A DNA stretch of 64,000 nucleotides from Candidatus Dojkabacteria bacterium (GCA_030834985.1 JAUQWV010000001.1:120979-184978), one strand, 5' to 3'; positions 18,162 to 55,961 are shown, numbered from the stretch's first letter. Made by a program: numbers and translations. Notes: generated by a model not told the origin, from the sequence alone.

Positions 18162-19316
18162 ATGGATTTGTCAGCTGATCAGCAAAATGCAATTTCTACT
18201 CTACTAATGTGGTATAAAAATCCAAAGAAATCTGCATTTATAACTTTAGGTGGTTATGCGGGTACAGGTAAAACTACCGTTATTTCATTATTACGCAGTG
18301 AGCTTAATAAGCTGAATTCTGAAATTAAAGTTGCATTCTGTAGCTATACAGGTAAAGCTACTAGAGTACTATCTAACAGACTAAAAGAATCTAACTCTAT
18401 TTATTCAGATGATTCTATAAGCACAATTCATGCCTTAATTTATTCCCCAATGGTAGATGATTCAAATGAAATTATTGGCTGGGAACGGAAAAAAACGATG
18501 GATGTTAATCTAATAATAGTTGATGAAGCTTCAATGGTAGATGAAGCAATCTGGCGTGATCTTCTTTCTTACGGAATTCCAATAATTGCTGTTGGTGATC
18601 ATGGGCAATTACCACCAATAAACTCAAAATTTAACTTGATGGAAAACCCAAATTTAAAATTAGAACAAATTCATAGACAGGCTGAAAATAATCCAATAAT
18701 TGAATTATCTATAATGGCTCGTACTAGTGGGACTATTCCTACAGGAAAGTTTGGCACTAATATTAAAAGGTTTTTACGTAACGATTTTGATGCAACAGAA
18801 ACAATAACTGAACTTTTACAGAATTATAAAAGCGACATATTAGTTCTATGCGGGTTTAATACTACACGTGTAAAGCTAAATAGATATATTAGATCTTCAC
18901 TTGGGTTTGAAACTCAACTACCAGAGCCTCGTGATCGTGTTATCTGCTTAAAAAATAATAGTACTAAAAATATTTTTAATGGCATGCTTGGTAAGCTACT
19001 ATATGCTACAGATGTTGATGAAGATATCCTAGATGTAGGTATTCAGATGGATGAAGAAGATTCGGAATATAACGGCTTAATTTTAAAAGAACAGTTTAAT
19101 TCAAAAGAAACATTAACAAAAAAGGCTAATAAAGAGATTGATCTCTTTGATTTCGGCTATGCGTTAACTGTACATAAATCGCAGGGTTCGCAATCAAAGA
19201 GAGTTATTTTATTTGAAGAAAGAGCTGGAGCAATGGATAATGATATTTGGAAAAGATGGCTCTACACTGCAGTAACTAGAGCCGAAGAAGAATTATTTAT
19301 TATTGGTCGAGAATAG
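18162..19316 (+). CDS. SF1B RecD/Dda/Pif1-like ATP-dependent DNA helicase (minimal, 384 aa)
   Basis: Walker A GGYAGTGKTT, Walker B/motif II IIVDEASMV, motif III GDHGQLPPI, motif V/VI TVHKSQGSQ. Starts 2 bp after the TPR gene. Confidence 0.75.
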   Translation: MDLSADQQNAISTLLMWYKNPKKSAFITLGGYAGTGKTTVISLLRSELNKLNSEIKVAFCSYTGKATRVLSNRLKESNSIYSDDSISTIHALIYSPMVDDSNEIIGWERKKTMDVNLIIVDEASMVDEAIWRDLLSYGIPIIAVGDHGQLPPINSKFNLMENPNLKLEQIHRQAENNPIIELSIMARTSGTIPTGKFGTNIKRFLRNDFDATETITELLQNYKSDILVLCGFNTTRVKLNRYIRSSLGFETQLPEPRDRVICLKNNSTKNIFNGMLGKLLYATDVDEDILDVGIQMDEEDSEYNGLILKEQFNSKETLTKKANKEIDLFDFGYALTVHKSQGSQSKRVILFEERAGAMDNDIWKRWLYTAVTRAEEELFIIGRE

Positions 19317-19318
19317 TT

Positions 19319-20116
19319 ATGGACTTAGCAAATGTTGTAATTTTAGCTGTTGTTCAAGGATTAACTGAGTATCTACCAATATCTTCTACTGCACATCTTT
19401 TAGTTTTGCAAAAGTTATTGAATACGCAGCCGAGTGTTTTATTTACAATAGTACTACAGTTGGGAACAATATTCGCTAGTATAGTCTATTTTAGAAAGAA
19501 AATTCTATCGGTTATAAAACACTCGGCTGCCAACGTTAAAAGCGGAAATATTAAGAATGATTTTGGAGTATGGATTCTAATAGGAATTATTCCTGTTATT
19601 ATTGTAGGTTTTGTTGCTAGCAATTATTTAGATCAAATTTATAATTATCCAATAATCATTGTTATAACTTCTATAGCATTTGGCTTTATGTTCTATGGTA
19701 TTGAAGTGTTCTACAAAAGTTCTAAAACACATTTGCAGCAACAAGATTTAAAACTTATTAATATTGTAAAAATTGGTTTAATGCAGATTTTGTCGTTAAT
19801 TCCAGGTGTATCTAGGTCGGGTGCAACAATTTCTGGCGGTCTAGCGCAAAAAATAGATTTTAAAGAAAGTATCGAGATATCGTTTTTAATGAGTATTCCA
19901 GTTATGCTTGCCGCAGGAATTTATGAGTTACTAAAGCATATAGGTTCCTTTACTCCGGAGCTATTAACTCAACTTCTAATAGGCGTAATAATTGCTTATT
20001 TTGCCGGTTTAGTGTCTATAAAACTTACACTTGGTTTTTTACTACGCAAAGGATTTCTTCCTTTTTTGATATATCGAGTTCTTTTTGGACTTTTTGTATT
20101 GATTGTAGTGGCCTAA
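19319..20116 (+). CDS. uppP: undecaprenyl-diphosphatase
   Basis: BacA/UppP signature GLTEYLPISSTAHLLV, a polytopic membrane protein, and the second motif region PGVSRSGATISGG. Confidence 0.85.
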   Translation: MDLANVVILAVVQGLTEYLPISSTAHLLVLQKLLNTQPSVLFTIVLQLGTIFASIVYFRKKILSVIKHSAANVKSGNIKNDFGVWILIGIIPVIIVGFVASNYLDQIYNYPIIIVITSIAFGFMFYGIEVFYKSSKTHLQQQDLKLINIVKIGLMQILSLIPGVSRSGATISGGLAQKIDFKESIEISFLMSIPVMLAAGIYELLKHIGSFTPELLTQLLIGVIIAYFAGLVSIKLTLGFLLRKGFLPFLIYRVLFGLFVLIVVA

Positions 20117-20121
20117 ATAAC

Positions 20122-21573
20122 TTAGAAAGCAAAACTTAGGATTAAACATAGCATAAGTATTAGCACAGTTCCTCCTAAAAGAAGAGCTTTATAGACTTTT
20201 ATTCTTCTTATTGCTTTTTTGCTCTCTTCTATTGCATAAACTACAGTAGCTAGATTAGCAGAAAGTAAAATAATACTGCTTTTTTCTTTTGCGATATCAA
20301 CTGCACTATCTGTAACAAGATTAACATTTGCGATATTTAAATTCTGTAATTGATCATATCCACGGCTTATATATCCTACAGTGCCCTCTTTTTTTAGCAT
20401 TTCAATAATCTTATATTTATCAGAATTATCTGTATCTGCAAATATATTCCCGTCAGCAGCTAAGCCAATAGATCTTGCTATATGACTAGCTATCTCCTTT
20501 GATTCTTCTGTTACAATCTTAAGCTGAATTCCAAGGTGGCTAGCCTCTTTAACAGCAGCTGCAACACCTTCTTGTATTTGGTCATAATAAAAATATGTGC
20601 CTATATACTTGAATCCTCGATTATGTTTTATAGCAAAAGCTACTGCTTTTAATCCATTTTTAGAGTTTTGGATAATTTTATTTTGAATTTCAGCGGTGTC
20701 TTTTCTAGTTAATCCAAAAATATATTCCGGATCACCTTTTATGATTTCAAAATCTTTAAATTTTCTAGATGAAAATTTGTTAATAGGATCAAACGGAGTT
20801 TCATGCAATAAAAATTCACTCTGTTCCTCAACATTTAAGAGCTTTAAATAATGCAAAATACATTTATCTAATGGATCTGTACTTTCTACAACAGACAAAT
20901 AGCTATATTTTAAAAACTCTTGAATATCAATTACTGAATCGTAAGATTCTACATTTAATTTGTTTAGAGTGAATGTTCCTGGAATGTCTGTAATTAAAAT
21001 GTTTATTGTACTTAACTCCTTAATTGCATTAGCATTTTTAATAATAACTTTATGTTTAGATAGTTTAAGCGCGGTATTTTTTAGTACTTTAGAGAAGATA
21101 CCTCCAGTATATTTGGAAATTGAATTACTAGCGGCAGCGCGTGGATACTTAATATTTTTGCCTGTGGCAAAAACCTTAACAATTGCGCTGCCGCCAACTA
21201 CATAACTTCCAGAATATACAATCCCATCTTGAGAATTTCGCTGAAGATTTAGATTCTCTTTTTTTGTAACTTCTTTAGCATTTCCTTCTACAAGTATAGA
21301 TTCATCAACTAATAAACTATCTTGTTCTAAAACAAATGAATCTGCACAAACAATATCACCTGCCTTTAAGAATAAAATATCATCTGGAACAACAGCAGAC
21401 TTATCTACCCAAGATTTTTTACCGTCTCTTAGAACAAGTGCACGGTTAGTAACTACTTTTGAAAGTTGAGTAAAAACATCATTTTGCTTCTTAGCTGCTA
21501 AAGGAACTAGGTTTTCACCATGTACTCTTATTGCCTTTGTTGCTTGATTCCAGCCTAATCCTTCTATATTCAT
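20122..21573 (-). CDS. P-type ATPase-like protein with degenerate catalytic motifs and only one C-terminal TM helix
   Basis: Actuator-like LRDGKKSWVDKSAVVPDDILFLKAGDIVCADSFVL...VDESILVEGN (TGES replaced by VEGN); phosphorylation loop ITDIPGTFT (canonical SDKTGTLT; Asp kept, Lys lost); hinge GYISRGYDQL in place of GDGVND; a single C-terminal TM. Confidence 0.5.
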   Translation of the reverse strand: MNIEGLGWNQATKAIRVHGENLVPLAAKKQNDVFTQLSKVVTNRALVLRDGKKSWVDKSAVVPDDILFLKAGDIVCADSFVLEQDSLLVDESILVEGNAKEVTKKENLNLQRNSQDGIVYSGSYVVGGSAIVKVFATGKNIKYPRAAASNSISKYTGGIFSKVLKNTALKLSKHKVIIKNANAIKELSTINILITDIPGTFTLNKLNVESYDSVIDIQEFLKYSYLSVVESTDPLDKCILHYLKLLNVEEQSEFLLHETPFDPINKFSSRKFKDFEIIKGDPEYIFGLTRKDTAEIQNKIIQNSKNGLKAVAFAIKHNRGFKYIGTYFYYDQIQEGVAAAVKEASHLGIQLKIVTEESKEIASHIARSIGLAADGNIFADTDNSDKYKIIEMLKKEGTVGYISRGYDQLQNLNIANVNLVTDSAVDIAKEKSSIILLSANLATVVYAIEESKKAIRRIKVYKALLLGGTVLILMLCLILSFAF

Positions 21574-21576
21574 ATA

Positions 21577-22599
21577 TTATTGAATTAATATAGACAGATA
21601 TTCGCCATCAATACTTATTCCTATTTGACTGATATCTTTGTTTAATATGTTATTACGATAAGTTGGATTATTCGATATCTTATCGAAAATATTAGCTGCT
21701 GTTTTAGGTGCGCTAATGCGAATGTTCATTTCTGCATAGCATTCAACCCCAGCATTAGCGCACCGTTCTTTATACGATAATCCATTAGATTCAACTGTAG
21801 AAAGCGATTGGTTATTATTCATCCACTGTGCATGAGATGTAGATAAATTAATTAGTACATTATTGGTTTGCAAAGTGTTTAATTTATTTTCTACTCTTAA
21901 ATTATTACCTAAGCAAATTATTGCATTTTCTAAAGATAGTTCACTACAATTTTCAAAACTACTTTCTTCTTCGACTTCAGCAACTGGTTCAAAGTTTTGA
22001 TTTGCCGTAAGATCTCTTAACTCTTCTGGCAATAAATTTTGATTTCTTAATAAATCAAGTAATTTTACAAAACTTACATTTGAAGCATAAACTGTTTTAT
22101 CCAGCTGTCTAACTGTAAATCTATCAACTTCCTTAACTAAAATTTCATTTACCTTTGCTGTTGTACGATTATTTGCTGCACTTCCTTTTAGTACATGTAT
22201 ACTTACTGGATTAGAGTTAATGATATATTCTCCTGCTTCTAGAGTTATATTTTCTGTGCCAAACACTGTTTGTATGTTTTCTATAACGTGAAAATAAGTA
22301 ACTCCATTTAAATTATTTATTTTGTGTTGATCAACGATTAAAGATATTGAATTTGAAACAATTACATAAGCTTTAGATTTTATTATTGTCGGCTCACTAA
22401 ATGTCACCGCTTCTAAGTAGTCTACTTTAATTGAATCTTTTTGATTCAATAGGCTAACTTCAATAGGCAATATACCAATGGCTCTTGCAAGAAGTCCATT
22501 TGGTGATCTAAAAGACAGATAGCCTATAACTGCTAATGAAACTGCAAATACAACTAATGCAATTATAGTGATAACTTTTTGTGTAAGCTTAAGATCCAT
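21577..22599 (-). CDS. hypothetical membrane-anchored protein (340 aa)
   Basis: N-terminal TM helix; 4 bp upstream of the P-type-ATPase-like gene on the same strand. Confidence 0.5.
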   Translation of the reverse strand: MDLKLTQKVITIIALVVFAVSLAVIGYLSFRSPNGLLARAIGILPIEVSLLNQKDSIKVDYLEAVTFSEPTIIKSKAYVIVSNSISLIVDQHKINNLNGVTYFHVIENIQTVFGTENITLEAGEYIINSNPVSIHVLKGSAANNRTTAKVNEILVKEVDRFTVRQLDKTVYASNVSFVKLLDLLRNQNLLPEELRDLTANQNFEPVAEVEEESSFENCSELSLENAIICLGNNLRVENKLNTLQTNNVLINLSTSHAQWMNNNQSLSTVESNGLSYKERCANAGVECYAEMNIRISAPKTAANIFDKISNNPTYRNNILNKDISQIGISIDGEYLSILIQ

Positions 22600-22711
22600 A
22601 TTATTAATATGATATCAATATTTTGATACAAATTCATTCTTGATTGAAGCTTCTATTGATGATGGTATTAAAAAATAGTATTATCGCACTGATAATTATT
22701 AATAATAATCT

Positions 22712-23299
22712 ATGGCAAATTTGGATAGAAAACCTAGCAGACTAATGCCTAACTTGTTGCATATTTTAGGAGCATATACAAATGAAGAAAAAAATGTTGT
22801 AAATGCAATTATAGAAGTTAATGCTGGTAGTAGACATAAATACGAATTAATTACTGAAACTGGCCATTTAAAACTAGATAGAGTTGGATATTCATCTTTA
22901 GTGTATCCATTTACTTATGGAGCAATTCCTGGTACTTGGGATTTGGATGGTGATCCTTTGGATGTTGTTATTGTAAATGTTGATGAAGCTTTAGTTCCTG
23001 GTTCTTTAGTTGAAGCTAGAATCATCGGTGTTATGAAATTTGAAGACGACGGTGAAGTTGATGATAAGGTTATTGCAGTCTTAAATGACGATAAAAGAGT
23101 TGATCATATTACTTCGATTGAAGATTTAGGCGAATACTTTATAAAAGAAACAACTTATTACTGGGAGCATTATAAAGATTTAAAGAAACCTGGTACTGGA
23201 AAAGTAGAAGGATTCTTTAATACAGCTACAGCAGTAAAAGTTATTGATGAATGTGTAGAAAGATATAACACTGAATACGCACCTAAGCTTGAAGATTAA
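22712..23299 (+). CDS. ppa: inorganic pyrophosphatase, family I
   Basis: EVNAGSRHKYE, the DGDPLDVVIV signature, and AVLNDD. Confidence 0.9.
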   Translation: MANLDRKPSRLMPNLLHILGAYTNEEKNVVNAIIEVNAGSRHKYELITETGHLKLDRVGYSSLVYPFTYGAIPGTWDLDGDPLDVVIVNVDEALVPGSLVEARIIGVMKFEDDGEVDDKVIAVLNDDKRVDHITSIEDLGEYFIKETTYYWEHYKDLKKPGTGKVEGFFNTATAVKVIDECVERYNTEYAPKLED

Positions 23300-25831: not shown

Positions 25832-25859
25832 TTGTTTGCTCAGGTTTCTCTGCTATAAT
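25832..25859 (+). promoter_or_regulatory. putative promoter TTGTTT-16-TATAAT upstream of the surface-protein gene
   Basis: Hexamers read from the sequence. The ORF-track TTG start at 25836 lies inside this element, which argues for a downstream start. Confidence 0.3.
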
Positions 25860-25898
25860 GAACAAAAATATAGTACTTTAGTTGTTATTTATACTATA

Positions 25899-28800
25899 GT
25901 GAAACGACTAACACACCAACTGCGCATTGGTTTGTATTTATCAATGCTAGCAATGTATTTTATTTCTCCCTTGGCTCCATTAGTAGCCGCAGATAATCCC
26001 CCAAGCTCATACCCTAGCGTTTTAGAGCAAGACCTAACGGATGGAACTGTTGAAACACCAGTGGAAGAGGAAGTTCCTGAACAAGAAACTCCTGTAACCG
26101 AGGAAGAACTACCGCTTACTTATCCTACTTCAAGCCCTTTACTTGAAGTTCCAAGTAAGGTTGTAGAAGGTAAAAAGGTTACTTACAATAACATTACTAC
26201 AGGTACAACATATATTTATGATTTCAATAGCGCTGTAACAATTAACTTTGCTGCTTTACCAGAAGGTGAATGGCATTTAAATATTGAGGAAGTTCAAGTT
26301 ACAGTAGATGGTCAAACTACAACAGGTTATGAATTCACTTCGAATTTAGTAGATGGAACTTTTGAATATGCAATGACCTTACCAAATCCTTACGGAACTT
26401 CTGCAGTTGTCAAATATTCTGAAGATGGCACTACTTATCAAGAATTAACTAACGAAGAAGTAGTTAGCAATGTACTAAGGTTCACTGCTGATCACTTTAC
26501 TGTGTTTGTAGTTGTACCTGATGACATTGTTCCAAGTAATATTGTCTCTTACTTTCATCAAGGCTGGAGATTAACTAGAGTTGGTAATGCTTCTATTGGA
26601 TTAACGGATATTACGACAGCAGGAGCTACCAACGCTTTTGGCCCTGACATTATTGGTATGAGTAGACCTGGAGGAGCTGGAACAAACAGGTCATTTCTTG
26701 GTTATTTTGATTATGGAAGAAGATTAAATGAAATAGAACAGATAAAATGGAATAGATTTAGTAATATTGGTAATGATACTTACCTAAACATATTTATTAC
26801 AAATTCCTTTGGAGGTTTTGGTGTTTTAGGTACAACAGCTACAGTTGTTGTTAAACCTAGCATTACACCTGGTGTTTGGCAAGAAGGAGTATTTGATAGT
26901 TCATCAACAGTAGATCTTAGAGTAGGAGGAACAACCTATACGCTTACATGGTCAGAATTAATGTCAACATACGGAAATTGGTTCATATACAATGATGCAA
27001 ATATATTGGCTAATAGGCAAGTAGGCGGAATTGTATTTGTGTCAGGCTCTTCAAGCCCTACCGCACAGCAAGAACATTATTACGATGGCGTTACTTTGGA
27101 TTTTGTAGGTGAAGATCCAATATTTTATGATTTTGTTCAAGAAGTTCCTGAGCAACCGGTGATAGAGATCTTAACTCCACTTTCTGGTTCATATGTAAAA
27201 GGAACAGTTAATGTAAGAGCTAGAATTACAGATTCAGGCTACGGTTTAAATCCTGACTATATTTGGGCAAAATTCTCAGATGGTATATCTCCTGCTGAGT
27301 TTGGCCCAACTTTGATGACATTAGTTCCTGGCGAAACTGATATTTATCAAGCAAATATCAACACAGTTCCTAATAATGGACTTTATAGTGTTGGCGTTGA
27401 TGTAATTGACAATATCGGTATGGGGAGGTCTGCTAAAAATATAAACGTCACGGTAGATAATACAAGACCAACCTTAGTATTTAATAATCCTTCTGTAGCT
27501 AATCAGCTTGTAGGAAGCGACTTTACTGTTAGTGTAACAGCTACTGATAATACTGTACTTAATTATATTGCTGTAAACTTATACAATGCTACTAACACAA
27601 CCTTACTTGGAACTTGTGGTGTATCACCAACTAATCTTGGAGTAAGTACATATACGTTTGAATGTAATATTGATGTAGATTCTTTATCTGAAGGAATCTA
27701 TACTTTGCGAGCAGGAACTTTTGATGCTGCAGGTAATAATCAAACAACAACTGCAACATTTAAGGTTGATAAAACCGCTCCTGTGTTGACAATTAAAGGT
27801 AGCGTATATGGTAATAGCTACACGCCTGAATCAATTGGAGTTGGTCCCTTAAGTAATGTATTTCAAAAAGTTAGCTTTAAGTTATTTGATAATAACTTAA
27901 TTGATAAAGTAACTGTAAACGGTGTTGTAAATGATATGTCAAATAATCAATGGAGTGATGCTAACAACATAATACCAAATAATTACTGGGGTGCTGTTGA
28001 GGGATTAAATACAATTGTACTATTTGACGCAGCTGGTAACAGCACATCATATGACTTTGTATTAGATACTACAGCGCCAGCTACTCCACTTGGCTTACAT
28101 TATTGGGATCCAAGTACTAGTTCTGAGCTAGCATGCGGATCTATTGTTCAACCAAAAAGTATATGGCCAAGATGGGATGCTAATACAGAAAGTGATTTCT
28201 CTCATTATGAATACACATCATTTGATGTAACTACTTCTGCTCCATTCTGGAGAGTTGGATTAGATGAACAGGTTCTAACCATAAACGAATTTCAACATAG
28301 CTGGGTCCCACCTATGGATGGAATTTACGGTTATGCAGTACGTTCGGTAGATGAAGTAGGTAATAAGTCAGACTGGGCTTTGGGTGGTACAGAAACTCTT
28401 GAAGATAGTTGTCAGTATACGGTTGATAGAGTAAGACCAGTTGCACCTGTAATTGTTTACCCTGATGAAAATGATGCCTTTAATGTAATGCCTATTCTTA
28501 ATGATTGGGAACATGAAGAGGAACTATTAGGAATAGACTTTTATAGAGTTGCCTATTTATATGATGATGGACACGTATTCGGCGGCAGTACATGTCCTGG
28601 CTTACAACTAGAAATAGATGGAGAGCTTAAAACTGTTAGCGGTTGTAGAGACGTAACAGCATCACAAAGATTCCATGTTCCAGATACTATAGAAGAAGGC
28701 GGTGTGAATTTTAAAGTTCAAGCATTTGACTTAGCTGGTAACGAAGGTGAATGGAGTGAATGGCGACATTATTATTACGATATTACTCAGCCATCCTCAT

Positions 28801-30704
28801 CCTTTATTTCACCTGCTGATGGAGCAGTATTCGGCGACAACGTAAATCTTGAAGGTGCTTCAGTGGATGTTATTACTTGGGTAGATGAAGTTTATTTAGA
28901 ATATAGCGAAGCTAATGCAGATAACTGGATTCTATTTGCTACATTGCCAAATACATTAGTTGCTAATCCATATGAATGGAGTTATTCTTGGTCACCTTTA
29001 ATAGAAGATGGTGTATACGATATTAGAGTAAGGGCAATGGATGCTGCAGGTAATGTTGAAAGCACAGATTATATTTATGATATTATATTTGATACTACTT
29101 CCCCATTAAATGTTCCTGTAATTACAGCGCCTACTGCTGAACAGTATTTCAACTCTATTCCAATACTAAATAAATGGACAGCAGTTGTTGATGAGCTAAG
29201 TGGTACAAACAGATATCAAGTAGCTTATTTATATGATGATGGACACGTGTTCGGCGGCAGTACATGTCCTGGCGTAGAGATTGAGATCAGTGGAGTACCG
29301 ACAGCAGTTAGCGGTTGTAGAGATACCTCAAATTTAGAAAGAAATCATACTCCAACACTTTCTGAACAAGGAGGTATAACAATCTGGGTAAGGGCAATTG
29401 ATAATGCTGAAAACGTAGGTGACTGGAGTGATCCTATCCATTACTATTACGATGCTACTGTGCCTGCTGTTCCAACAAATGGATTGCCACATAATCAGTA
29501 TAAAAATACAAATGATGGTTGGTACTTTACTTGGAGTGACGTTACTGACTCCGGTTCCCCAATTCATTATGAGTTTATAGCTTCTCAAAATAATTCAGTA
29601 GATGAGTATGGGGTTTTAAATTCTGGAGTTTGGTATAACACAAGTAGTAGCCATCCTGAACAGAATCCATTGAATTTACCACAGATACTAACTGTTGGTG
29701 CTGCTGAAGGTCAATGGTTCTGGCAAGTTCGCGCAATTGATGAAGCTGGTAATACCAGTAATTGGAGCGAAGTGTGGAATGTAACTATAGATATGACAGA
29801 TCCTGGTGTTGAAATCACATTACCAACTGATTCTTCACTACTTTCTGGCATTCAAGATATAAGAGGTACGGTACAAGACAGTAATCTTGCAGGTTACTTG
29901 ATTGCAATTCTTGATACTTCTCTTTCATTAATTGATGGCCCAATTATAGTTACTGACGGTATATCATTTATAGATGCACTATTACTTAACTGGGATACTG
30001 AACTGGAAGCTGATGGTGACTATGTGATTGTATTAGCAGCAGCTGACCTAGCATGGAATTGGTCAGTAGACTTTATTACTGTAACCATTGATAATACACC
30101 TCCGGTATTAGTATTAGAACCAACAGTAGTAATTAATGAAGGTCAAGTTCTTGGCGAAGGAGACATTTTGGAAGAAGGAGGGAATCCAGAAGATCTACAA
30201 ATAGTTTGCAATCCAGAGTTAGATTCACTACCTTTATCAGTGGATGAAGACGAGACAATTCCTGTTGAATGTACAATAACAGATGCTGCAGGCAATACTG
30301 CAACTCAAACAGTTATGGTAACAATTCTGGACGTTCCTGAAACACCAGAACAGCCTCAAGAAGAAACACCTAGTACTAACCCAGGAACTAATACTGGTAA
30401 CAACCCTGGAACACAGGCAACAGCTTTAGGAAACGCAGAAGTTTTAGGTGCTGATAACGAAGGTGATGTTGAAGGCAATAATCCCGCAAGCTTCCCTGTG
30501 GATGAAGATGACTTAACATCTGATGATTTAACAACAAGAAGCTCTGGTAATGTACAAGGTCTTGGTGACTCGCAAACTACTGAAGGTGAAGAAACAAATA
30601 CAACTTCACCATTATTGGTAATATGCTTAGTTGCTGGTGCTTTATTATTAATCTTATTATTCTTGTTCTTATTCTTAAGAAGAGATAACGAGGAAACGAA
30701 CTAA
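25899..30704 (+). CDS. giant secreted or cell-surface protein (~1600 aa) with multiple Ig-like/beta-sandwich repeats and a C-terminal hydrophobic anchor
   Basis: Probable GTG start at 25899 gives a signal peptide VKRLTHQLRIGLYLSMLAMYFISPLAPLVAA|DN (ATG at 25944 is an alternative). The body is Thr/Asn/Gly-rich with repeated ...YYYD.T.P... modules. C-terminus is ...TNTTSPLLVICLVAGALLLILLFLFLFLRRDNEETN. Confidence 0.7.
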   Translation: MKRLTHQLRIGLYLSMLAMYFISPLAPLVAADNPPSSYPSVLEQDLTDGTVETPVEEEVPEQETPVTEEELPLTYPTSSPLLEVPSKVVEGKKVTYNNITTGTTYIYDFNSAVTINFAALPEGEWHLNIEEVQVTVDGQTTTGYEFTSNLVDGTFEYAMTLPNPYGTSAVVKYSEDGTTYQELTNEEVVSNVLRFTADHFTVFVVVPDDIVPSNIVSYFHQGWRLTRVGNASIGLTDITTAGATNAFGPDIIGMSRPGGAGTNRSFLGYFDYGRRLNEIEQIKWNRFSNIGNDTYLNIFITNSFGGFGVLGTTATVVVKPSITPGVWQEGVFDSSSTVDLRVGGTTYTLTWSELMSTYGNWFIYNDANILANRQVGGIVFVSGSSSPTAQQEHYYDGVTLDFVGEDPIFYDFVQEVPEQPVIEILTPLSGSYVKGTVNVRARITDSGYGLNPDYIWAKFSDGISPAEFGPTLMTLVPGETDIYQANINTVPNNGLYSVGVDVIDNIGMGRSAKNINVTVDNTRPTLVFNNPSVANQLVGSDFTVSVTATDNTVLNYIAVNLYNATNTTLLGTCGVSPTNLGVSTYTFECNIDVDSLSEGIYTLRAGTFDAAGNNQTTTATFKVDKTAPVLTIKGSVYGNSYTPESIGVGPLSNVFQKVSFKLFDNNLIDKVTVNGVVNDMSNNQWSDANNIIPNNYWGAVEGLNTIVLFDAAGNSTSYDFVLDTTAPATPLGLHYWDPSTSSELACGSIVQPKSIWPRWDANTESDFSHYEYTSFDVTTSAPFWRVGLDEQVLTINEFQHSWVPPMDGIYGYAVRSVDEVGNKSDWALGGTETLEDSCQYTVDRVRPVAPVIVYPDENDAFNVMPILNDWEHEEELLGIDFYRVAYLYDDGHVFGGSTCPGLQLEIDGELKTVSGCRDVTASQRFHVPDTIEEGGVNFKVQAFDLAGNEGEWSEWRHYYYDITQPSSSFISPADGAVFGDNVNLEGASVDVITWVDEVYLEYSEANADNWILFATLPNTLVANPYEWSYSWSPLIEDGVYDIRVRAMDAAGNVESTDYIYDIIFDTTSPLNVPVITAPTAEQYFNSIPILNKWTAVVDELSGTNRYQVAYLYDDGHVFGGSTCPGVEIEISGVPTAVSGCRDTSNLERNHTPTLSEQGGITIWVRAIDNAENVGDWSDPIHYYYDATVPAVPTNGLPHNQYKNTNDGWYFTWSDVTDSGSPIHYEFIASQNNSVDEYGVLNSGVWYNTSSSHPEQNPLNLPQILTVGAAEGQWFWQVRAIDEAGNTSNWSEVWNVTIDMTDPGVEITLPTDSSLLSGIQDIRGTVQDSNLAGYLIAILDTSLSLIDGPIIVTDGISFIDALLLNWDTELEADGDYVIVLAAADLAWNWSVDFITVTIDNTPPVLVLEPTVVINEGQVLGEGDILEEGGNPEDLQIVCNPELDSLPLSVDEDETIPVECTITDAAGNTATQTVMVTILDVPETPEQPQEETPSTNPGTNTGNNPGTQATALGNAEVLGADNEGDVEGNNPASFPVDEDDLTSDDLTTRSSGNVQGLGDSQTTEGEETNTTSPLLVICLVAGALLLILLFLFLFLRRDNEETN
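28440..28798 (+). repeat. internal duplicated module, copy 1 (~120 aa domain)
   Basis: Copies share a 51 nt core with 2 mismatches (28571..28621 vs 29224..29274, gcctatttatatgatgatggacacgtattcggcggcagtacatgtcctggc) and the protein motif AYLYDDGHVFGGSTCPG...VSGCRD. Confidence 0.7.
29109..29475 (+). repeat. internal duplicated module, copy 2
   Basis: See copy 1; the two copies are separated by one unrelated Ig-like domain. Confidence 0.7.
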
Positions 30705-54152: not shown

Positions 54153-55961
54153 TTATGTACGTTCTGAAAACTGTTGTCTAGAGTTGTAATCTGGTGCCGA
54201 GATATCTTCAGTCATTCCTACCAAAAATGGATCAGAGTTCTGTATAAGTGTAAGCATATCGTGTGCCATATCTCTATTAGAAATATCGTTACCAGTTGTA
54301 GAGCGTTGGTCTGTAAAGTAATCCAATTGTGTAGGTGGTCCGCTTAAGTGCATTCGCGTTTGATGTCCTAGTGGAAGCAGTTTTCTAATTACAGTTAGAT
54401 CTTTATTAGGAAATCTTGCCGCTAAATATTTATAGAATTCCATTAACTTTTGATAATATGCATTGGCATCAGCTTCCCATTGACCCTGTAAGTGCTGTAA
54501 ACCTTCAGTTTTAATAATTTTTGAACTTGTATTAAAGCCATTCGCGATCATAGCCTCATAGTCTACTTGGTCATTTTCGTTATAATCAAAATTTAGCAAG
54601 TATCCAATATCTTGTCTACCTAACGCTCTGTGTCGATTAAAGTCTCTTAATTGGGCTAATGCGGTATTAAGTACAAATAATTTATCACCTCTAATATCAC
54701 CTAGATTACCCATCTTTTCATGTCGAGTATGATTTTGGAATATAATTGAACCTATCTCTCTTTTTGCTTGATCATCTAATGTGGCCAACCAACTTAATAC
54801 TGTTGATTCTTTAAGATTAGGATATGCGGTGCAAATGTACTGCATTGCTACTAAAGCGCCACTTGGGGCGCCGTCAATAAGGGTTACTTCTGTTTGCCTT
54901 GCATAATCCACGGTGTTAGGGACGGCGCCCTCCAATAACTCATTAAATGCTGGCATTGCTTCCAAATATGCTCTTAAATTACTTACGTTTTCTCTTATTG
55001 TAAGTGTAGGATCAGTATATTTTATTAATGGTTCAAGATTCGCATTTACATCTTGCCCCTCTTCTGTTTCTGAAAGTGAAAGTGCAAATCTAAGTTGCTC
55101 TGCTAACTCTACATATTCCTGCTCGCCAGTTTCTTGCATTATTTTTATATAGTTATTGAAGATTCTTTGATTACCTAATAGGCACATAGAAGTAGTTGCG
55201 CCCATAGGAATCCAACTTCTTACTACATCTAACACTCTGGCTTTTATAGTATTGTCTTCTAATGGTTCATCTTCTGGATTGCCTGCAAACTGCTGTAGGT
55301 AACCCTGCTCAATTAATTGGTACCACTTAACGTAATTACCTTCAGCCATTGCTAATAGCTCATAATATTGCTCAATAATATGCTCTTTATCCGCTTCAGA
55401 TCCTGCAGGAATTACCGAAAAATCCATTAAATCTTCAATCCGCGGAAAATTCATCTTATTGAATTTTATATATCTGCTTGAAGATTCCTGTCCATCGCCA
55501 TACCATAGATGATGGAAAATCCAGTATGCCTGCTCTAGCGATATATTATTAAAGAATAGAAATACTGGAATCATTCCCAGGATAGATTGATGTCCATAAT
55601 CTAGTCCAAATTCCTTAATCTTTCTTGCAGCAGCAACAGGATCCATTTGTACAAGCTCCAATACTTCATCAAAGATCTCTTCATAGCTTTTTCTAGTTCT
55701 AGAGGTTCTGGCGCCGCTCCAGGCGGGAAAAATATGCTTATCTATTCCTCCTTCTGATTTCGGTTCACTAAATGGAAAGAATGAGACAATCGGTTTTGTA
55801 GGATCTTGTCTTTTAACCTGATATAGCAAGTTGTGCAGTTTACCGTCAACTTCTCTTGTTACAACATCGATAGAAAATTTAGGAGGGTGTTGTACTTCAG
55901 CTTCTGATTCTACAGATTCTGGCCGTGTTTTAGATATTTCTTGATTCTGATCTAAAGACAT
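54153..55961 (-). CDS. large ThyX-family (flavin-dependent thymidylate synthase)-like protein with duplicated-domain architecture (602 aa)
   Basis: C-terminal half: FNRHRALGRQDIGY (RHR motif) and RKLLPLGHQTRMHLSGPPTQLDYF, aligned by eye to recollected T. maritima ThyX [24 protein letters not shown]. N-terminal half: GHQSILGMIPVF and YWIFHHLWYGDGQESSSRYIKF versus ThyX GHETPFEHIVF / [20 protein letters not shown] (RHR degenerate, SxRY kept). Adjacent to dcd. Confidence 0.5.
   Translation of the reverse strand: MSLDQNQEISKTRPESVESEAEVQHPPKFSIDVVTREVDGKLHNLLYQVKRQDPTKPIVSFFPFSEPKSEGGIDKHIFPAWSGARTSRTRKSYEEIFDEVLELVQMDPVAAARKIKEFGLDYGHQSILGMIPVFLFFNNISLEQAYWIFHHLWYGDGQESSSRYIKFNKMNFPRIEDLMDFSVIPAGSEADKEHIIEQYYELLAMAEGNYVKWYQLIEQGYLQQFAGNPEDEPLEDNTIKARVLDVVRSWIPMGATTSMCLLGNQRIFNNYIKIMQETGEQEYVELAEQLRFALSLSETEEGQDVNANLEPLIKYTDPTLTIRENVSNLRAYLEAMPAFNELLEGAVPNTVDYARQTEVTLIDGAPSGALVAMQYICTAYPNLKESTVLSWLATLDDQAKREIGSIIFQNHTRHEKMGNLGDIRGDKLFVLNTALAQLRDFNRHRALGRQDIGYLLNFDYNENDQVDYEAMIANGFNTSSKIIKTEGLQHLQGQWEADANAYYQKLMEFYKYLAARFPNKDLTVIRKLLPLGHQTRMHLSGPPTQLDYFTDQRSTTGNDISNRDMAHDMLTLIQNSDPFLVGMTEDISAPDYNSRQQFSERT

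Follow-up and report, generated by a model that had tools for sequence, protein, structure and literature searches.

The locus examined here raises the question of what a P-type ATPase can still be for once nearly all of its membrane domain is gone and its catalytic signatures are degenerate. In a 64,000-nucleotide stretch of DNA from a Candidatus Dojkabacteria bacterium (Patescibacteria; GCA_030834985.1 JAUQWV010000001.1:120979-184978), hereafter the window, an open reading frame (ORF) at 20122..21573 on the minus strand (ATG start, TAA stop at 20122-20124) encodes a protein of 483 amino acids (aa), which Candidatus Dojkabacteria records label just 'hypothetical protein'. The original prediction had described it as a soluble, catalytically degenerate homolog of P-type ATPases. 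The present analysis favors, with a probability of about 0.6, a membrane-tethered pseudoenzyme, namely the full headpiece of a P3-like P-type ATPase (actuator, phosphorylation and nucleotide-binding domains; A, P and N) carried on a remnant of transmembrane (TM) helix M5 and kept by selection for a non-catalytic role. The protein is called the pseudo-ATPase below. A chance origin of the reading frame is excluded, since the probability of 483 open codons at 31% GC is ~1e-17 and the remaining two frames contain 51 and 57 stops.

Profile searches, on which the original prediction had staked its case, recovered both expected families. The Pfam family E1-E2_ATPase (PF00122) was found well above its gathering cut-off (8.8e-17, 61.6 bits, cut-off 28.1), and the Hydrolase/HAD family (PF00702) below it (5.6e-4, 20.8 bits, cut-off 26.4). 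The NCBIfam model for P-type ATPases of the HAD-IC type, TIGR01494, matched residues 168-481 with 95.2 bits (cut-off 62.3), and the top sequence matches in the PDB were fungal and plant H+-ATPases and MgtA. The A, P and N folds are present in canonical order. The predicted structure is confidently folded and superposes on MgtA, AHA2 and SPCA1a across ~460 residues. Homology to P-type ATPases with all three soluble domains is thus borne out by profiles, PDB matches and model superposition together. The scores against the equivalog models of the P3B type (MgtA) and P3A type (H+-ATPase) were 104 and 178 bits, and the cut-offs of these models are 611 and 616.

Alignment to full-length orthologs showed that M1-M2, M3 with half of M4, and M6-M10 are absent, as the original prediction had proposed when it noted the loss of the N-terminal and middle TM helices. 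The sole hydrophobic segment lies at residues 458-483, where a P-type membrane domain would have at least six core TM helices with an ion or substrate site in M4. The adjective 'soluble' was imprecise: the M5 remnant is predicted to serve as a tail anchor. Four in-frame deletions account for the difference: ~54 aa comprising the M1-M2 hairpin; ~57 aa that span the linker from A to M3, M3 itself and the first half of M4; ~25 aa forming an insert of the P domain; and everything past M5. P1B pumps likewise lack this P-domain insert. Each deletion removes a topologically self-contained unit. Since hairpins and a C-terminal block were removed, the alignment and the structure model show the A, P and N domains all remaining on the cytoplasmic side of the membrane.

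The first two deletion junctions coincide with the two stretches of the model that have low confidence, with a predicted local distance difference test score (pLDDT) below 50 at residues 26-30 and 146-157; the short N-terminal piece ahead of them contains a helix at residues 8-18 (pLDDT 85-91). At the second junction the residues show 15% identity to the full-length ortholog P0003, and the ion-site motif PEAL is replaced by SKYT. The surviving half of M4, which aligns with the hydrophobic stretch AISVAIIPEALP in P0003, has become the polar stretch AAASNSISKYTG, and this rewriting looks like an adaptation to solvent and not like decay. The coordinates of these elements are given in Table 1.

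Table 1. Elements of the pseudo-ATPase gene, and its upstream partner gene, in window coordinates.
Feature	Coordinates	Strand	Remarks
Whole gene: pseudo-P-type-ATPase, headpiece and one TM helix	20122..21573	-	483 aa
Residues 1-27: N-terminal part of the A domain, which M1 normally follows	21493..21573	-	matches ortholog residues 1-27
Deletion junction 1: residues 26-30, AAKKQ; ~54 aa M1-M2 hairpin gone	21484..21498	-	alignment gap
Residues 31-145: A-domain core, beta-rich	21139..21483	-	Pfam E1-E2_ATPase over 42-147; 54% identity with P0003
Residues 95-99, VEGNA: degenerate TGES dephosphorylation loop	21277..21291	-	TGES = EGNA, catalytic Glu to Asn
Deletion junction 2: residues 146-158, AAASNSISKYTGG	21100..21138	-	~57 aa gone: A-M3 linker, M3, half of M4
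Residues 159-215: cytoplasmic M4 stalk and first half of P domain	20929..21099	-	alignment, structure model
Residues 196-200, DIPGT: degenerate DKTGT	20974..20988	-	Asp retained, Lys to Ile, Thr to Pro
N-domain region	20584..20928	-	dN/dS 0.057; 57% identity with P0003, highest of all regions; SERCA F487, K492 and K515 retained, R560 to Lys, A517 to Asp
Residues 331-440: second half of P domain	20254..20583	-	~25 aa P2/P3-type insert deleted past residue 374; 43% identity with P0003
Residues 355-357, TEE: degenerate TGD	20503..20511	-	same in sister allele
Residues 403-408, SRGYDQ: degenerate GDGIND	20350..20367	-	sister allele SRGSDH
Residues 441-483: one continuous helix, stalk S5 and M5	20125..20253	-	AlphaFold2 (AF2) helix 441-482
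Hydrophobic tail 458-483, sole TM segment	20125-20202	-	Kyte-Doolittle; C-terminus coincides with M5 end
Partner gene, 340 aa: N-terminal TM helix and C-terminal CAP/SCP (YkwD-like) domain	21577..22599	-	upstream of pseudo-ATPase

Deletions that fall exactly at domain boundaries could also mean that the pump has been split, its membrane domain now being encoded by separate genes; multi-subunit P-type systems such as KdpFABC exist, and KdpFABC was among the structural matches of the pseudo-ATPase. This explanation is hardly credible. A tblastn search with the M1-M2, M3-M4 and M5-M10 segments of four orthologs gave no match to the missing TM segments in the 64-kb window (all E >1), the genes on either side match those next to the full-length orthologs and leave no room for extra genes, and with the catalytic residues lost there would be no engine for a separate membrane part.

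The loss of catalytic residues was followed with SERCA numbering applied onto the alignment. All four catalytic signatures are altered, as had been claimed, with DIPGT and TEE exactly as given; for the other two the alteration stood and the register did not, TGES corresponding to EGNA (not VEGN) and GDGVND to SRGYDQ (not RGYDQL). The TGES glutamate E183 is replaced by Asn, and MAFFT placed a one-residue insertion before this position; the sister allele has AGEG here (AAGEG as the wider stretch). In DKTGT, K352 has become Ile and T353 Pro with D351 retained (DITGT in the sister allele), and the Gly-Asp of TGD has become Glu-Glu. In GDGIND, D703 is replaced by Arg, N706 by Asp and D707 by Gln, the sister allele having His at the last position. 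Further replacements are R678 to Asp, R560 to Lys and A517 to Asp, and the retained SERCA positions are D351, T355, F487, K492, K515, D601, T625 and K684. The original prediction had asked whether the Asp of TDIPGT is conserved, and this nucleophile was found to be invariant.

Considered as a set of four HAD motifs, the protein fails: motif I reads D-I-P, the Thr of motif II and the Lys of motif III are present, and the acidic pair of motif IV is Arg/Gln. To our knowledge, the acidic residues of motif IV are needed for Mg2+ binding in every characterised HAD phosphotransferase. Because the aspartates of the Mg2+ site, the Lys of DKTGT, the Gly-Asp of TGD and the Glu of TGES have all been replaced, established P-type ATPase and HAD enzymology indicates that the phosphoenzyme cycle has almost certainly been lost. 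The sister allele has the same TEE, SRG and KGD and also Asp at 678; as most of the remodelled residues are shared by both alleles, the remodelled state is itself conserved. With the four sequence-defining features and the membrane-domain feature of the superfamily all failing, the protein is best filed as a derivative (pseudoenzyme) that is homologous to P-type ATPases by profile, and not as a working member. It is a clear homolog of an enzyme family, its essential catalytic residues are replaced, and it is under purifying selection (see below), which are among the marks of a pseudoenzyme.

The pseudo-ATPase could still be an enzyme, i.e. a tethered HAD-type phosphatase or ATPase whose changed metal site works with Asp196, Thr355 and Lys386. 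In its favor, these three residues (the nucleophile, the motif II Thr and the motif III Lys) are invariant, the ATP-contact residues F261, K266 and K279 of the N domain are retained, and the N domain is the most constrained part of the protein. Small archaeal proteins annotated 'soluble P-type ATPase' exist (PMC4153887). Proteins of this archaeal kind turned out to be HAD phosphatases. Set against it are the destruction of HAD motif IV (D703 to Arg, D707 to Gln or His), the replacement of TGD, of the DKTGT Lys, of the TGES Glu and of R678 and R560, and the position of the P domain as the most diverged soluble domain. Residual enzyme activity is accordingly regarded as highly unlikely.

Whether the gene is maintained was judged from a comparison of the window gene with the L001 allele. 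Over 480 codons, 120 changes between the two are synonymous and 79 non-synonymous, and there are no internal indels. The synonymous divergence (dS) is 0.54 and the non-synonymous divergence (dN) 0.074, which gives a dN/dS of 0.136 (bootstrap confidence interval 0.095-0.188; Fisher p 2e-38). By region, constraint is strongest in the N domain (0.057), followed by the second (0.13) and first (0.14) halves of the P domain, the A domain (0.20) and the TM tail (0.23); the control genes gave 0.06 (UppP), 0.20 (the CAP-domain protein encoded upstream) and 0.02 (helicase fragment). Six population variants on >70 contigs from four data sources all have 483 aa and are at least 99% identical. An assembly artefact was rejected, as the protein has the identical length on all of these contigs. 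The pseudo-ATPase gene is thus a maintained gene under purifying selection and not a decaying relic.

The alternative is a pump gene still undergoing reductive decay, without function, in a small symbiont-type genome. Patescibacteria genomes are reduced, the deletions are large and the catalytic motifs gone, dN is higher than in the neighboring genes (0.074 vs ~0.016), motifs have eroded in relatives too, and the beta-lactamase-like and SOUL neighbors of related loci are missing from the window. Against decay stand the upper bound of 0.19 on dN/dS, the improbably long open frame, the absence of internal indels at a dS of 0.54, the uniform length of the population variants, the confidently folded model, and the fact that each deletion is in-frame and takes a whole structural unit, the M4 remnant having become polar. 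Taken together, these points make a functionless relic very improbable.

The protein has passed through a fast evolutionary phase, judging by its long stem branch (Kimura distance to outgroups 1.38, vs 0.89 for P0003). Compared with P0003 the usual ranking of conservation is inverted, the N (57%) and A (54%) domains being more conserved than P (43-46%) and M5 (28%), whereas the intact pair P0004/P0003 shows 70-72% identity in P and 59% in N.

Nucleotide identity between window positions 19084-22300 and L001 1-3133 is a mosaic: the CAP gene matches at 99-99.5%, the pseudo-ATPase gene at 76-85% across its 3' half, and uppP and the helicase gene at 92-97%, with corresponding dS values of 0.08, 0.54 and 0.27. 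The divergent patch may stem from recombinational import of a divergent allele or from locally faster evolution.

The distribution of the short form was examined by a word-indexed search of 5.8 billion sequences and an exhaustive HMMER search of 1.84 billion representatives. In both, only two headpiece-only short proteins were found, the window cluster and P0002 (485 aa, 86% identity), and the remaining strong HMMER matches were pumps of ~780-850 aa or fragments. Genome scans with family patterns detected no further short alleles and no partial-deletion intermediates, and a metagenome scan with such patterns yielded neither among the matches listed. The original prediction had spoken of an undescribed protein class. 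No description was found in the searchable literature, but 'class' overstates what is a lineage-specific derivative, because the form is limited to one Dojkabacteria population and one divergent allele.

The nearest relatives (P0003-P0009, L005-L007 and L037) have 779-791 aa and carry Cation_ATPase_N and Cation_ATPase_C. The loci share a gene order of ABC transporter (604 aa), inorganic pyrophosphatase, ~340 aa protein, pump, BacA/UppP, helicase (384 aa), TPR protein and a 97-aa ORF, so that by position the pseudo-ATPase is the ortholog of a full-length pump rather than an additional paralog. P0003, which is of the parent type, scored 455 bits with TIGR01524 (MgtA) and 452 bits with TIGR01647 (H+-ATPase), both under the equivalog cut-offs, and its best PDB match was MgtA (8uy7, 1e-108). 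These scores suggest a parent pump that is P3-like and lies between P3A and P3B in NCBIfam, yet below the equivalog cut-offs of both. A conceivable alternative assignment of the parent family is to the CtpE/'P6' ATPases, which are similar in length and have been reported from Saccharibacteria.

These data bear on the possibility that the pseudo-ATPase is a non-catalytic regulator or pseudo-subunit of an intact P-type ATPase encoded elsewhere, which it could cap or inhibit in an oligomer of the MgtA or PMA1 type. The titles of matching PDB entries and papers describe MgtA as a dimer and PMA1 as a hexamer, and a complete, well-folded headpiece with its M5 helix kept under purifying selection would suit such a role. 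A positional ortholog of the lineage's own pump, as opposed to an added paralog, does not, and the 64-kb window contains no second P-type ATPase. Moreover, the oligomer contacts of MgtA and PMA1 are probably made largely via membrane helices that are deleted here. A regulatory subunit is for these reasons considered rather unlikely.

Erosion of catalytic motifs is not confined to the short proteins. In eight of the 11 distinct sequences of the sub-clade, one or more of the catalytic residues that are normally invariant have been lost, namely in the window protein, P0002 and six full-length ORFs; in P0003, P0004 and P0005 the motifs are essentially intact. In the order TGES, DKTGT, TGD and GDGxND, the six full-length sequences read as follows: P0006 has TGKD with the other three intact; P0007 has TGAT, DKIGT, SDD and GDGIKD; P0008 has TGAS, DKSGT, TSD and GNGVED; L006 has TGSD, DIAGT, TKD and GEGIED; L037 has TRES, DAAGT, TED and GNGNND; and P0068 has INTS, DKNGT, SED and GNGIDD. 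Since six full-length relatives have also lost catalytic residues, the value retained by the protein in this lineage appears to be independent of turnover, with the window protein as the extreme case.

The motif-eroded full-length orthologs have 10 TM helices and ORFs of ~785 aa (L006 4124-6481, L037 2746-5103 and L035 5001-7361; P0006, P0007 and P0068). They are possible 'pseudo-pumps' in which the membrane domain has been kept.

The gene directly upstream of the pseudo-ATPase gene encodes a protein for which a role beside the ATPase may be considered. The original prediction had named it as a co-transcribed, membrane-anchored hypothetical protein; the single N-terminal TM helix (residues 2-33) was found, but the protein is not wholly hypothetical, as residues 232-330 match the Pfam family CAP (PF00188; 2.4e-7, 32 bits, cut-off 21.1) within a large, disulfide-containing extracytoplasmic domain. 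Cys218, Cys229, Cys280, Cys287 and His256 are invariant, and His256, Glu278, Glu290 and the four Cys are conserved in seven orthologs. The partner stops 3 nt before the ATG of the pseudo-ATPase (TAA tat ATG). A partner ortholog lies directly upstream of the pump in L002-L006, L034, L035 and L037, with a spacing of 1-3 nt in every sub-clade locus examined; in the more distant P0009 no partner ortholog adjoins the pump. From this spacing and the conserved adjacency, the two genes are probably co-transcribed. A scan of 19900-22800 was uninformative, with 10 promoter-like sites (14.5 expected) and no terminators.

The partner is the fastest-diverging of the syntenic genes when the window is compared with L005 (4965-5999), with 38% identity as against 75% (ABC transporter), 70% (pyrophosphatase), 61% (UppP) and 50% (ATPase); the partners of L005 and L006 share 65% identity with each other. 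The divergence of the window partner may represent co-acceleration with the shortened ATPase.

On the favored reading as a membrane-tethered pseudoenzyme, the pseudo-ATPase would have arisen in situ from the ~786 aa pump with 10 TM helices that is found at this locus in related Patescibacteria. The pump of this lineage would earlier have shifted to a turnover-independent role, as the lost catalytic residues of the six full-length relatives suggest, and its membrane domain would thereby have become dispensable. Four in-frame deletions would then have stripped the membrane units and the peripheral P-domain insert, the headpiece staying cytoplasmic. Such a protein should transport nothing, because it has no ion path. 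Its most likely mode of action would be non-catalytic binding or scaffolding at the inner face of the membrane, probably in concert with its single-pass CAP-domain partner and perhaps by way of helix-helix contact. Its N domain may possibly still bind nucleotide. We tentatively suggest, as a possibility that falls short of being probable, that the pair of pump and CAP-domain protein had gained a role without ATP turnover or ion transport, e.g. in envelope or host-contact signalling or in anchoring, with the ATPase body serving as a cytoplasmic binding module.

Several observations weigh against this interpretation. The phospho-acceptor Asp, the HAD motif II Thr and the motif III Lys are retained, so that some unconventional chemistry is conceivable. 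The ~4-fold higher dN of the gene relative to its neighbors means that constraint is real and weaker than in housekeeping genes, and the estimate of selection comes from a single comparison of just two alleles. As to the partner, its AF2 model reached a pLDDT of 40.3, from two recruited homologs, and its cytoplasmic part is just ~8 residues long; any contact with the pseudo-ATPase must therefore be helix-helix within the membrane.

The surroundings of the locus vary among relatives. A class-A beta-lactamase-like gene follows BacA/UppP in the compared stretches of L003 (10775-14443), L005 (8362-10336) and L034 (7522-11202); past it, L003 and L034 have a SOUL-domain gene and then the helicase, L005 having been read only to the beta-lactamase-like gene. 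In the window (18162-20116) and in L001, uppP directly abuts the helicase gene, which indicates that the beta-lactamase-like and SOUL genes were lost in the window lineage; L035 also lacks both. The interval between pump and BacA contains four tandem paralogous ORFs of ~102-106 aa (MITEEQVK... type) in L006 (6545-8119), a single ORF of 107-109 aa in L003 and L035, and none in the window. In L035 (968-2778 and 2922-3854), which carries P0008, the 604 aa ABC transporter gene seems to be split into ORFs of 377 and 216 aa, and a DHH/DHHA2 (family-II-like) protein occupies the position of the family-I pyrophosphatase. Elsewhere in the window, a 1622 aa ORF at 25836-30704 on the plus strand looks like a giant surface protein: it combines a hydrophobic segment near the N-terminus with repeated 'YLYDDGHVFGGSTCPG' modules and has a TM anchor at the C-terminus. 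A 602 aa ORF at 54153-55961 on the minus strand shows only a partial ThyX (Thy1) match at residues 104-290 (2.3e-10) and is far longer than a normal ThyX, which makes for an unusual architecture.

P-type ATPases belong to the best understood membrane pumps. If the pair of pump and CAP-domain protein did gain a role without ATP turnover or ion transport, the pseudo-ATPase would be the end-point of that trajectory and, as a headpiece able to fold and function with its membrane domain gone, the first natural pseudo-P-type-ATPase to stand alone. As a natural experiment, the protein would show the A-P-N headpiece persisting as a folded unit of its own with a single helix, and would place P-type ATPases among the enzyme families that have yielded pseudoenzymes. 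The graded series from intact pump through motif-degenerate 10-TM protein to headpiece only would offer a handle on non-transport roles and on the question of whether the CAP-domain protein is an accessory subunit. The narrow distribution makes the immediate impact modest. Because automatic annotation by TIGR01494 would call the pseudo-ATPase a P-type ATPase, too much transport capacity could be ascribed to such genomes.

A literature search found no stand-alone, membrane-stripped, catalytically degenerate P-type ATPase in the searchable literature, and the part of Palmgren's review of the field's open questions that was accessible makes no mention of such a protein. The closest matches in sequence and structure are the P3-type pumps (MgtA, P3B; plant and fungal H+-ATPases, P3A), which have the same order of A, P, N and M5; the pseudo-ATPase differs from them in lacking nine of the ten TM helices and the ion-binding site, and in the degeneracy of all four signatures. 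The archaeal 'soluble P-type ATPases' (COG4087, MJ0968-type) are HAD proteins of ~150-160 aa that are related to the P domain, have no transport, A or N domains and keep their HAD motifs intact. The pseudo-ATPase, in contrast, has all three headpiece domains and has lost the motifs. Folding of the P domain, the N domain or both without a membrane domain is known from engineered fragments (CopB-B, 2iye; the CopB ATP-binding domain, 3sky; the MgtA N domain, 3gwi), which accounted for all the short chains that the structural search matched. These fragments are laboratory constructs of active pumps with the catalytic residues kept, whereas the pseudo-ATPase is a natural gene.

The CAP-domain partner shares the overall topology of the Na,K-ATPase beta subunit: the cytoplasmic N-terminus is short, a single TM helix crosses the membrane, and the ectodomain is large and contains disulfides. 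The likeness to single-pass accessory subunits (Na,K-ATPase beta, CDC50, KdpC) is one of analogy only. The ectodomain is of the CAP/SCP type, and a physical link between partner and pseudo-ATPase would be purely hypothetical.

Among published cases of degenerate P-type modules, the closest is the flippase module of GC-beta. In alveolate guanylyl cyclases, especially Plasmodium GC-beta (P4GC-beta), a P4-ATPase (flippase) module has been kept although the DKTGT aspartate, the DGET glutamate and GDGxND are degenerate, and it is thought to have a supporting or regulatory role (PMC6592433, PMC13466520). The apicomplexan module is a eukaryotic P4 type, is fused to a cyclase and retains its 10-TM domain, whereas the pseudo-ATPase is bacterial, P3-like and stand-alone, and has been stripped of its membrane domain.

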